Below, piece by piece: positions 2,303 through 5,234 of a stretch of DNA of 64,000 nucleotides (the stretch's first letter is position 1; every line of letters starts with the position of its first letter). A model generated the notes under the pieces. It searched no databases, was not told the DNA's origin, and saw only the letters and a program-made list of their open reading frames with translations. Origin of the DNA: Phycisphaerae bacterium (GTDB lineage: Bacteria > Planctomycetota > Phycisphaerae > UBA1845 > Fen-1342); assembly GCA_963675745.2 (NCBI GenBank), contig CAXXWX010000023.1, positions 1 through 64,000 on the forward strand. The letters are read 5' to 3'. The translations under genes and the position numbers were made by a program.

Positions 2303-2869
2303 ATGGCCAGGCTTTGCTTTCTTGCCCCGCTCGTCTTCATAGCCGTAATCGGCATGGTGCAACCAGAGGCAGGCGAATCAACAACTGACACGGACGCGAC
2401 CACAACGCAGGCGACCGGCGCGGCTCCGGAGACGGAGCAACCGGCGCGATCGCCTGGTAAGCCTTTTCAGGAAGACATCTTACGTACGCTGCTCAACGCG
2501 CGCGAGGCACCAACCATGATCGCGCCGCAGAATCCTGACGCCGTGAACGTCACGCCCACGGCCAATGAGGGCTCGGCGCGCGGGCAAAACGCGCTGCTCA
2601 TGGTCGAAGGCACAATGATCGTGGAACGGCCGGGTAGGCTCGCGCTTGCCGATGGCAAGGCGGAAATCTCGCTGCGCCTGAGCGACGGACGGCGCACGGT
2701 CACGATGCAGATCCTGCCCAATAGCCTGCTGGAGGCGATGGAGGCCGAGGCCCATTCGGGCACACCCGAGTTTGTCGTATCGGGCGAGATAACGACATAC
2801 CATGGAAGGAATTACCTGTTTCTTCACAAGGTGATTCGACGCGTTGGCCACGGGAATCTGGCTCCGTGA
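2303..2869 (+). CDS. Exported hypothetical protein
   Basis: SD GGAGG before ATG 2303; hydrophobic N-terminus; compact C-terminal domain (ILPNSLLEAME..FVVSGEITTYHGRNYL). Confidence 0.75.
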   Translation: MARLCFLAPLVFIAVIGMVQPEAGESTTDTDATTTQATGAAPETEQPARSPGKPFQEDILRTLLNAREAPTMIAPQNPDAVNVTPTANEGSARGQNALLMVEGTMIVERPGRLALADGKAEISLRLSDGRRTVTMQILPNSLLEAMEAEAHSGTPEFVVSGEITTYHGRNYLFLHKVIRRVGHGNLAP

Positions 2870-3110
2870 AGATAGGGTAACTGGGGACTTCTGGTTAAAT
2901 TTGTCGATAATCTGATAATTGAAGTCACACTTTATTCTTACCCTATACCGCAATATGTGGATATCAGATCTGCCGGGCACACGTTTTCTCGATTCCGGGA
3001 TGAACCGCTTCTGAGGGTAGTTACCTATAAAACGCCCGTATTAACATTAGCAGTTCACAATAGTTAAAATAACACGCCCCGCCCCATAACGACATGTGTT
3101 ATAACTGCTT
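2870..3110 (+). promoter_or_regulatory. AT-rich regulatory region with direct/inverted repeats and an extended -10
   Basis: Sharp AT enrichment. IR ATAGGGTAA (2872-2880)/TTACCCTAT (2938-2946). Direct repeats TAGTTA-N2/3-ATAA(A/C)ACGCCC at 3018-3037 and 3061-3079. TGtTATAAC at 3097-3105. Confidence 0.6.
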
Positions 3111-3423
3111 GTGTCAGGTGAGCGCAGCTCGATACTCGCGGCACCGCAGCCCGTCGCTCGCACCTGACATGGCACATGTGGATCCCGGTCGATAGAGCTC
3201 AGGGACGGGCTGCGGACGGCCGACTGCATCGGTTAAGAAAGGATGCTTCGCCGATGCATTTCTTACGCCCCGATTCTGGGGCACTGCGGATGCGTTTCCG
3301 GGTGAATTCGACACCGTCGACGTCCCGCCATCAAGATGGCGCAACAGCACGCTTGACCTTGGTGGCCCCCTCGCTCGAAACCAACCCCCAAAAGGACGTC
3401 AGGGTTGAATTCGCCCTCTTTTT
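3111..3423 (+). ncRNA. Candidate structured non-coding RNA of unknown family
   Basis: Dense complementary segments (listed in findings), G-U pairs favouring the + strand, upstream extended -10, terminal hairpin plus U-run, and no credible ORF. Confidence 0.5.
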
Positions 3424-5234
3424 GCGCGCAGCTCGCGGAGCATAAGCAACCGGCAAGTCCAGGAGTGCGTCTCGCGAACGTGTTCGGCCACGCGCGTCAG
3501 GCGCTGCGCGAGCACCGACGGTCGCGCGGCCCTGCTTGCGCACAGCGCACGCAGATCCTTTGCCCCGGCGAAGGTGTCAAAGTCCTGCCGCGGGTCGAAT
3601 ACACCGCCCAGGCTCTCACGCCGCAGCCGGCCACCGGGAGTGTGCATGGCAATCCGCCAGCCGCGGGCGGCAGCCTCCAGTAGTTCGCCGCTCAACGGGT
3701 CCGGGAGGCTGGGAAAAGCAACAAGTCCCGGCTCGGCGGCAGGCTGTAGATTCAGGGCGGTGGAAAGGCAATCCGACAACACCCGCAGCTTTGCCGAGGC
3801 CTGAGGCCCCCAGCCGCGCCCGACGACCCAGACGGCATCCGCCTGCCGCGTCAGAACGTCACTGATCCGGCGCAGAGTCACCGCCGGCACCAGCACGAAC
3901 TCGATCAAACGCAGGAATCCGCTACGCAGCGACTCTTCGCCAAGCCGAATGCCGCTGGTGCGGCTGGCGGTGGCAAGCAGGGTCTCGGGCTCGCGCACGT
4001 CGGCGCGTTCCCAGCGCTGCTCGACGGTCTGGCGCAGTTGCTTCCAAAGCAGTTTGTGCGTGGGCTGCTCGATTCCACAGGCAGCTTCGGAGTCGTTCGG
4101 CAGGTCGCCGACCAGCATCAGCGCCCCTGCCTCCTTCGCCGATGATTGGTGTGCAAGCCCCGAATCGCCGCAGGCCCAATAGAACGAATGGAGGCTTTCG
4201 TCGCCCGCACCAGCGCGACGGAGCGCTTGCTCGATCATCGGGCTGGCGGCCAGATGGATATCATCACCGGGACCAAGCTCCGCGGGAATGTCATCTCGAC
4301 GCAAGTGCCAGACGAAGCGCGCTCCCCGGGCGGCGTACGGAATCTGCGCGTGTGCCGAGCCGATGTTGATGGTCATGGTGGGCGCGAAATTGCTCAGCAG
4401 TTCGCACGCGCTTAGCACGTGGCCATCCAACGGCGAGTCGAGCACCGCGCGCGTTGCCTCCCAGCCGATCGCGTGGGCGGCACGCTCCAACTCCGCGGTC
4501 AAACGGTGGACGCGCGCATCAGGCGTCAGCGCCACGAGTGCCAGACGCTCACCGGCGCCCGGCGCCGGGCTTACCTTGGCGCGAAGGTCCTCCATGCGGC
4601 GGGCACGCGATGTCAGCACCGCCGCGTTCACCGCTTCACAGATTTCGCGCACGCGGTCGAGGTGTTTGGCCGACAGGTTCGGCAGCCGCAGGATGTTCCC
4701 CGGCGGCAAGAGACCCGGGTATCGTTCCAACAACTCGACCAGGTGGGCACGATCGTCGGCGGTGCTCACGATATGGCAGCGATGCTCTCGGAGCGCGCAA
4801 TCAAGGGGCCGAATGCGCAATACGGCCGCAATCACGCTCAGATCCTGCTCAAACACGAAGACGGCCACGTGTTGCGGCAAACGCTCGAGCAGCGAAGCGA
4901 GCTCCACGCCCGAGGCGAGCGCCGGCAGCGTGGCATTGAAATTTCCGCGGTCGTAATCTCTCAGGAGTGCCTCGGCGCGACGTTGGGGGATTGCCGACCC
5001 TCCCAGCCACCGGGGCGCTTCGCCGCCGGCCTCGATGCGCCAGTTCATAGCCCCATCGAGGGCCAGCGCCGGACGGTAGTGTGAAGGCAATTCGAAATCC
5101 GCGAGGCGCGCGGCCAGTTGCGGATGCGTCTCAGCGAGGGCCGCGTGATTGCGCTGCCGGATTTCGCCGTCGAGCGTCGCCGGGCGCAGGGCATCAAGCA
5201 ATGTCAAATCGACGGTATCGCCGGTCGCGCTCAT
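3399..5234 (-). CDS. Putative glycosyltransferase (Maf/DUF115-like N-terminus, CgeB/GT-B-like C-terminus)
   Basis: N-terminal RNHAALAETHPQLAARL and VFVFEQD resemble Maf-like proteins; C-terminal AEHVRETHSWTCRL resembles the CgeB-type ending. Confidence 0.55.
   Translation of the reverse strand: MSATGDTVDLTLLDALRPATLDGEIRQRNHAALAETHPQLAARLADFELPSHYRPALALDGAMNWRIEAGGEAPRWLGGSAIPQRRAEALLRDYDRGNFNATLPALASGVELASLLERLPQHVAVFVFEQDLSVIAAVLRIRPLDCALREHRCHIVSTADDRAHLVELLERYPGLLPPGNILRLPNLSAKHLDRVREICEAVNAAVLTSRARRMEDLRAKVSPAPGAGERLALVALTPDARVHRLTAELERAAHAIGWEATRAVLDSPLDGHVLSACELLSNFAPTMTINIGSAHAQIPYAARGARFVWHLRRDDIPAELGPGDDIHLAASPMIEQALRRAGAGDESLHSFYWACGDSGLAHQSSAKEAGALMLVGDLPNDSEAACGIEQPTHKLLWKQLRQTVEQRWERADVREPETLLATASRTSGIRLGEESLRSGFLRLIEFVLVPAVTLRRISDVLTRQADAVWVVGRGWGPQASAKLRVLSDCLSTALNLQPAAEPGLVAFPSLPDPLSGELLEAAARGWRIAMHTPGGRLRRESLGGVFDPRQDFDTFAGAKDLRALCASRAARPSVLAQRLTRVAEHVRETHSWTCRLLMLRELRAKRGRIQP

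Follow-up and report, generated by a model that had tools for sequence, protein, structure and literature searches.

A Conserved Structured RNA with Two Predicted CsrA-Binding Hairpins and a Rod with a C-Rich Strand in a Family of Phycisphaerae

The window, a stretch of 64,000 nucleotides from a Phycisphaerae bacterium (genome G000), carries at positions 3111-3423 of the + strand a real, conserved structured RNA gene without an Rfam family, whose product is predicted to be a small RNA (sRNA). Judging from the sequence comparisons, the RNA is probably a Csr/Rsm-type decoy of CsrA in bacteria that encode FliW. A preliminary description of this DNA had proposed an unannotated structured non-coding RNA on this strand, and family-wide conservation, covariation, G-U changes, a conserved -10 region, a terminal U-run, the single copy and the lack of an Rfam match all support it.

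Conservation and Strand of the RNA Gene

BLAST with positions 3090-3430 gave a match for 37 of the 60 other genomes from the same Phycisphaerae family (f1) and for none of 40 genomes from other families. A covariance model of 39 aligned rows, run over 72 f1 genomes, matched 67 of them at one syntenic locus each (in two pieces in G059, which has an insertion of about 130 nt at the linker hairpin d). Outside f1, the full model found no convincing match in 145 genomes of the class with only 13-27 candidates scored per genome, a match in G223 being chance-like. The element is single-copy in G000, and dispersed copies of the MITE or REP kind, as considered in the preliminary description, were not seen.

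A fold of the 313-nt + strand was better than those of shuffles (z -3.16, 0/100 as good); the - strand gave z -2.26, with 5/100 shuffles as good. In an unfitted MAFFT alignment, the nested structure of 50 pairs was 86.8% paired and had double-sided changes in 35 of the 50 pairs, which exceeded all 500 shuffles and, by a wide margin, slid-structure controls (29-42%); both the shuffles and the slid controls ignore kinship among the rows. Another 34 model-aligned matches were 87.6% paired with 43 double-sided pairs, in an alignment that was fitted to the model; 8 of these rows repeat ones from the training set. Since many of the one-sided changes were to G-U, the + strand can be fixed as the RNA strand.

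Rfam gave zero matches at E<=10 over positions 2500-4000 and none at 10 homolog loci, apart from one unrelated chance match. The preliminary description could not match the element to the hallmarks of tRNA, tmRNA, RNase P, SRP or 6S RNA, and this held. The tRNA and tmRNA search of the window found none; tmRNA, SRP and RNase P are each located elsewhere in G000, with none at 3111-3423, and the true 6S lies at C26:801495-801680, RF00013 having no match at the element. The element is therefore an additional RNA. No description of it was found in the literature, subscription papers and supplementary motif catalogues being largely outside the scope of that search, so an unnamed prior listing is possible.

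Two ANGGAN Hairpins in the 5' Domain

The 5' domain on the + strand consists of helix P1 (3186-3191/3217-3222) around the P2 hairpin (3196-3211), together spanning 3186-3222, and of the P3 hairpin with an internal loop (3225-3258), all supported by covariation. P1, P2 and the two ANGGAN loops are missing from the structure list of the preliminary description. The loop of P2 forms the first CsrA-type site (3201-3206) and the loop of P3 the second (3239-3244), in which the GGA has an unpaired probability of 0.98. Both hexaloops fitted ANGGAN in all rows (39/39 and 39/39), with A1, G3, G4 and A5 invariant and N2 and N6 free, and the spacing between the two loops was 36-42 nt (39 rows). The pairs closing these loops covary, that of P3 being A-G in G000 and C-G in most homologs. 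Among 25 loci outside the training set, 24 kept both loops, the second being read by eye. G021 has lost both hairpins and kept the rod and csrA. In G000 the predicted minimum free energy (MFE) fold hides the first site, the GGA being unpaired with a probability of 0.26.

As stated in a 2020 review, the ANGGAN hexaloop is a high-affinity RsmE/CsrA site with contacts to the A and the GGA, and one CsrA dimer bridges sites 10-63 nt apart (PMC7652899), a range that includes the spacing of 36-42 nt seen here. The function, which the preliminary description had given as unknown, is narrowed by the invariant hexaloops of both hairpins to predicted CsrA binding. Between this domain and the rod, hairpin d (3267-3282, +) lies in a variable linker and differs among homologs in length and sequence.

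Variable Leader and Lineage-Specific Helices

The 5' leader (3111-3175, +) is variable, with a sequence conserved no further than the sister genome G001. It can form stem a (3111-3124/3155-3170; duplex energy -20.2 kcal/mol), and the loop of this stem holds a strand (3144-3155) complementary to 3204-3215 over a perfect 12 bp (helix b; -26.2), base 3155 being common to a and b. The pairing of the 3' strand of b (3204-3215, +) with the leader would break P1/P2 and hide the first site. Nested folds of G000 reached -133.4 kcal/mol with b vs -126.2 kcal/mol with a, P1 and P2. A counterpart of stem a, altered in sequence, is present in G001.

Pairing of the leader with the 3' arm of P2 was strong in G000 (-38.2) and in G001 (-29.8) of the same genus, and weak in G003 (-11.7), also of that genus. 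When cognate and swapped partners were compared in 39 other homologs (5 of the 44 loci, including G000 and G001, being left out), the mean z was 0.07 and none fell below -2, and b was rejected as a feature of the whole family. Helices a and b may form an H-type pseudoknot or a switch in one sub-lineage, in G000 and G001 only. For the pairing called c, the stem (3225-3232/3251-3258) had -12.2, and the 7-nt loop match had only -3.5 with zero linker after the stem; as a family feature, pseudoknot c was not supported (permutation p of 0.065, with helices averaging 4.49 vs 4.35 bp). All pairings a to e of the preliminary description, with the 27-nt bulge at 3367-3393 and the U-run at 3417-3423, are present in the sequence. 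The fold shared by the family is nested (P1/P2, P3 and the rod) and not the multi-pseudoknot that had been proposed from them, which stays plausible for a and b in two genomes of one genus.

Promoter and Neighbouring Genes

An extended -10 box of the TG-n-TAnnn[T] type lies at about 3095-3106 (+), with the final T replaced by C in G000 (TATAAC). By regex, 37 of the 44 homologs were assigned a box of the TG-n-TAnnnT type in their upstream region, a few of the assignments being off-register. Further upstream, a sigma-70-like candidate with -35 and -10 elements was found at 3041-3070 (+; 1 found, 0.6 expected by chance), and the homologs are likewise A/T-conserved at its -10 position (columns -43..-38), which suggests a second promoter. 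The claim that the RNA has its own promoter is supported by the conserved -10 region. A promoter PWM run over G000 gave no clear regulon. About 10-17 nt 5' of the -10 box, a CCGATAAGAA-like motif recurs in the promoters of the homologs, possibly the site of a regulator. The idea that the upstream CCGATAA motif belongs to a sigma-28 promoter was rejected, since the motif stands 12 nt from the TAAA box and the consensus spacing for sigma-28 is about 15 nt. The intergenic region at 2870-3110 is AT-rich and contains DnaA-box-like words (e.g., 2957-2965).

The upstream gene (2246-2869, +) encodes a planctomycete hypothetical protein of 207 aa and is syntenic in 28 of 30 loci. Homologs of this protein, often in a two-repeat form, occur in 118 of 121 genomes of the order, and it belongs to no Pfam or NCBIfam family. 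The downstream gene (3399-5234, -; 611 aa) is convergent and overlaps the last ~25 nt of the RNA. Convergent downstream genes were identified in 20 of 30 loci, 14 from one common family and 6 from that of G000, so that this gene is not a fixed neighbour. The preliminary description had placed the 3' end antisense to a glycosyltransferase; the overlap is there, and the protein, with zero Pfam or NCBIfam matches, is glycosyltransferase-like by Atlas look-alikes only (PF13524, 0.97). The fixed upstream neighbour, the convergent downstream gene and the conserved -10 box together indicate a standalone sRNA gene.

CsrA, FliW and Flagellin

The csrA gene is present in 71 of 72 f1 genomes and in 5/5 genomes of the sister families f3 and f6, in which rod homologs also occur; f3 genomes carry two csrA genes. 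Planctomycetes are listed among the phyla expected to use FliW in an earlier study (PMC4682653), and fliW was found in 147 of 150 genomes of the order, adjoining csrA in 28 of 30 loci. The one csrA of G000 lies within a flgL-like-fliW-csrA-flagellin cluster, and its RNA-binding residues L4 and R44 are present. The Shine-Dalgarno (SD) sequence of flagellin carries the same ANGGAN site, [AT]CANGGANG, in 29 of 31 csrA loci, and this site occurs near the start of 25 of the 3813 genes of G000 (home-made calls).

The flagellin leaders (L032:1787-1818, L250-L279) have a near-invariant 30-nt ribosome-binding region with a CsrA site, and no obvious sigma-28 promoter was found between csrA and flagellin. 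In the conserved csrA leaders (L032:1465-1503, L250-L279), two overlapping GGA motifs lie over the SD. The GCATCGGC further upstream in the csrA leader has exactly the sequence of P3's 5' arm and can form a fold that covers the start codon; autoregulation is likely, and a shared origin with P3 is possible.

G000 contains 26 intergenic pairs of ANGGAN hairpins within 70 nt, many of them from a REP-like repeat. This REP/BIME-like intergenic family has 74 hairpins, 1 of them inside a called gene (e.g., C14:22957-23217, C26:356167-358545). About 33 have ANGGAN loops, many being ANGGAT, and their orientation leans to the strand of the upstream gene (24 vs 11); when transcribed, they could be incidental CsrA sites.

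The 3' Rod and Its C-Rich Strand

The rod (+) is built of a terminal stem (3300-3312/3404-3416), a middle stem (3319-3325/3394-3400) and an upper stem (3327-3335/3358-3366), all with covariation, and a U-run (3417-3423, +) follows the terminal stem as in an intrinsic terminator. Between the upper and middle stems lies an unpaired C-rich strand (3367-3393, 27 nt, +) with the invariant core CUCGCUC. The bubble is one-sided in f1, with 27-35 nt on this strand vs 1-4 nt on the opposite side. Across three families no element is more invariant than CUCGCUC, which is kept where the hairpins are lost. It resembles an anti-SD sequence, and 11 of 39 rows have an extra CCUCC 3' of the core.

Several candidates for the bulge were rejected. 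Antisense pairing with 23S rRNA helix 38 was no better than that of shuffles; the same was found for rRNA in general, tmRNA, 6S, SRP and RNase P. Pairing with the 5' end of tmRNA (-26.3) was not significant against shuffles (mean -22.4, best -27.9). A 7-nt match to tRNA T-loops was set aside because the invariance sits in the upstream CUCGCUC and not in the bases facing the T-loop. No small peptide is conserved, the frames being split 26/8/6 over three frames with 8 lacking a start (n=48). The bulge 17-mer was also seen in a different conserved non-coding-looking element, without the rod, at loci in Acidobacteria (L048, L063, L078, L100, L129, L136).

Sister Families and Modularity

Searches with a model of the rod alone recovered homologs in 39/39 f1, 6/6 f3 and 4/27 f6 genomes, often two per genome, and a widened rod model found them in 7/27 f6 genomes and in 0/31 f2 and 0/38 f7 genomes. 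No convincing match was obtained in the class and phylum samples, where 13-27 candidates were scored per genome. In another family of the class, L461 (G183:C106:33650-33765) is a possible distant rod (E 8e-4), located 3' of what by eye is a capsid-like ORF.

Within 330 nt upstream, 15 f3/f6 rods together had 39 ANGGAN hairpins, against a dinucleotide-shuffle mean of 2.55 (max 7) and none in antisense orientation. The rule applied also admits an A-G closing pair, and the chance-like G371 match and the second rod of the G062 tandem were left out. Four further confident rods had 4, 0, 2 and 2 such hairpins upstream, the zero belonging to an f6 rod. In the sister families there were 1-6 ANGGAN hairpins per gene and often two gene copies. 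At L442 (G062:C30:69139-69541), two tandem rods flank an ANGGAN hairpin.

A hairpin-only pattern search was too loose (196/200 matched) and pointed to loci in f5, where in three genomes (L502, L503, L504) the hairpin domain lacks the rod and precedes a conserved hypothetical gene. This rod-less domain may serve as a leader under CsrA control or as a sponge of reduced length. Exact-pattern scans of genome contigs gave many chance matches in other phyla, without the rod. Because the hairpins occur without the rod in f5 and the rod without the hairpins in G021, the two domains can be regarded as separable modules.

Possible Function and Alternative Explanations

According to the decoy model, an independent transcript of about 310-345 nt would be made from a sigma-70-type promoter, starting at 3111 (or ~3077) and ending at ~3423. 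One CsrA dimer would bridge both loops in f1, and more dimers could be bound in f3 and f6. CsrA would thereby be pulled off the leaders of flagellin, csrA and other genes, relieving repression, and the decoy would work in parallel to the Flagellin-FliW-CsrA loop. The rod would be a separable module that terminates the transcript, makes it more stable and keeps the C-rich strand accessible to another partner, for which a protein (such as a factor of RNA decay or RNA binding) or the ribosome-binding site of an mRNA is most likely. In G000 and G001 only, the leader helix b could close the first site as a possible built-in switch.

CsrB has about 18 CsrA sites, and the two sites in f1 would therefore give a low sponge capacity unless the RNA is abundant. 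Moreover, CsrA binding cannot be the whole story, since G021 has no hairpins, an f6 rod has no hairpins, f5 has no rod and the bulge is the most invariant part. Also speaking against a decoy are the predicted hiding of the first site in G000, the A-G pair that closes its second loop, and the further paired ANGGAN hairpins of that genome, many of them REP-like. Somewhat tentatively, the RNA might be described as a modular two-part RNA of one Phycisphaerae order, in which a CsrA-sponge domain independent of the gammaproteobacterial Csr sRNAs stands alongside FliW and is fused to a partner-recruiting rod that couples CsrA sequestration to another signal, with a leader-pseudoknot switch in one genus.

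The best surviving alternative is that the RNA has a dual function, in which the rod's C-rich strand has the leading role, through base-pairing to ribosome-binding sites or contact with a protein, and CsrA is not titrated but acts as a stabiliser or matchmaker, as with McaS and GadY or with SR1 of Bacillus subtilis, where pairing is assisted by CsrA. The invariance of CUCGCUC across three families, its survival of hairpin loss, and the anti-SD-like core with its occasional CCUCC would fit such a role. However, no convincing target of the bulge was found in G000, where the longest complement in a genome-wide search was 14 nt and flagellin and csrA ranked only 2243 and 2271 among the start regions of the 3813 called genes, and the increase to as many as 6 hairpins in the sister families is what a sponge would predict. 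We consider this explanation unlikely, though worth keeping beside the decoy.

Much less credit can be given to the rod as a mimic of the open promoter for RNA polymerase, as in 6S or Ms1. The RNA shares with Ms1, whose architecture is outlined in PMC9130861, a length of ~300 nt, a long rod, a large unpaired strand and extra hairpins. Canonical 6S is nevertheless found elsewhere in G000, and the bubble, with 1-4 nt facing 27-35 nt in f1, is strongly asymmetric. The likeness to Ms1 was rejected: RF02566 had no match at the locus, and six real Ms1-family sequences gave no nhmmer match to the model.

An equally poor prospect is a cis-acting element, either an attenuator or switch with an antiterminator formed by the bulge and the terminal stem's 5' strand, or a 3' UTR of the upstream gene. 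That 5' strand fits G-R-G-Y-G-R in 45 of 48 rows, a figure from a regex that itself imposed part of the pattern, and this hints at an alternative pairing with UCGCUC; the upstream gene is also fixed in f1. On the other hand, a separate promoter is conserved, 27 loci of the upstream gene in other families have no such RNA 3' of it, and with a downstream gene that is convergent where identified (20/30 loci) there is nothing to attenuate.

A remnant of a REP, MITE or other DNA-level repeat is largely refuted, the many ANGGAT loops of the REP-like family in G000 notwithstanding, by the single copy, the one syntenic locus in 67 of 72 genomes, the compensatory and G-U changes and stems unlike those of the REP hairpins. 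Still less can be said for a target RNA of ANTAR proteins, a kind of RNA whose dual hexaloops have A at position 1 and G at position 4 as both hexaloops do here: this is largely refuted because G3 and A5 are invariant as well, the hairpins do not overlap the terminator, and no ANTAR domain was found in G000, G031, G004 or G062, whereas two actinobacterial controls were positive.

Comparison with Known Systems

By its sequence features, the predicted decoy RNA appears to resemble the Csr/Rsm sRNAs while standing outside all Rfam Csr families. Like CsrB, CsrC, RsmX, RsmY and RsmZ, it is a standalone sRNA with ANGGAN hexaloop hairpins and an intrinsic terminator in a genome with csrA, and as with CsrB and CsrC there are paralogous copies, here in the sister families f3 and f6. 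Unlike them, it has no Rfam similarity (the CsrB, CsrC, RsmY, PrrB_RsmZ and RsmX models found no match), and the f1 RNA has only two sites, set in long covarying helices, with an extra conserved rod. The host of the present RNA is a planctomycete with FliW. In the gammaproteobacterial Csr circuit, these sRNAs are transcribed under the control of BarA/UvrY (GacS/GacA).

The E. coli base-pairing sRNAs McaS and GadY, which carry two or more GGA motifs and bind CsrA according to the 2020 review (PMC7652899), are similar in having few CsrA-type sites and a second putative functional region. No sequence relation to them was seen, and no mRNA target was found for the second region of our RNA.

The flgL-like-fliW-csrA-flagellin cluster, whose flagellin SD is overlapped by a CsrA site, resembles the Hag-FliW-CsrA system of B. 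subtilis and the flaA leader of Campylobacter. According to PMC7366521, no dedicated sRNA antagonist is known for those systems, and antagonism of CsrA by sRNA and by FliW is described there as mutually exclusive; the 2020 review leaves it to be determined if any species uses FliW and sRNAs jointly (PMC7652899). In contrast to those systems, the family of G000 has a candidate sRNA antagonist, and with 67 of 72 genomes and the sister families it provides a concrete family-wide candidate for FliW and an sRNA acting together. The question is thereby made testable with one small protein and one transcript, and the rod adds a further conserved RNA motif to the comparison.
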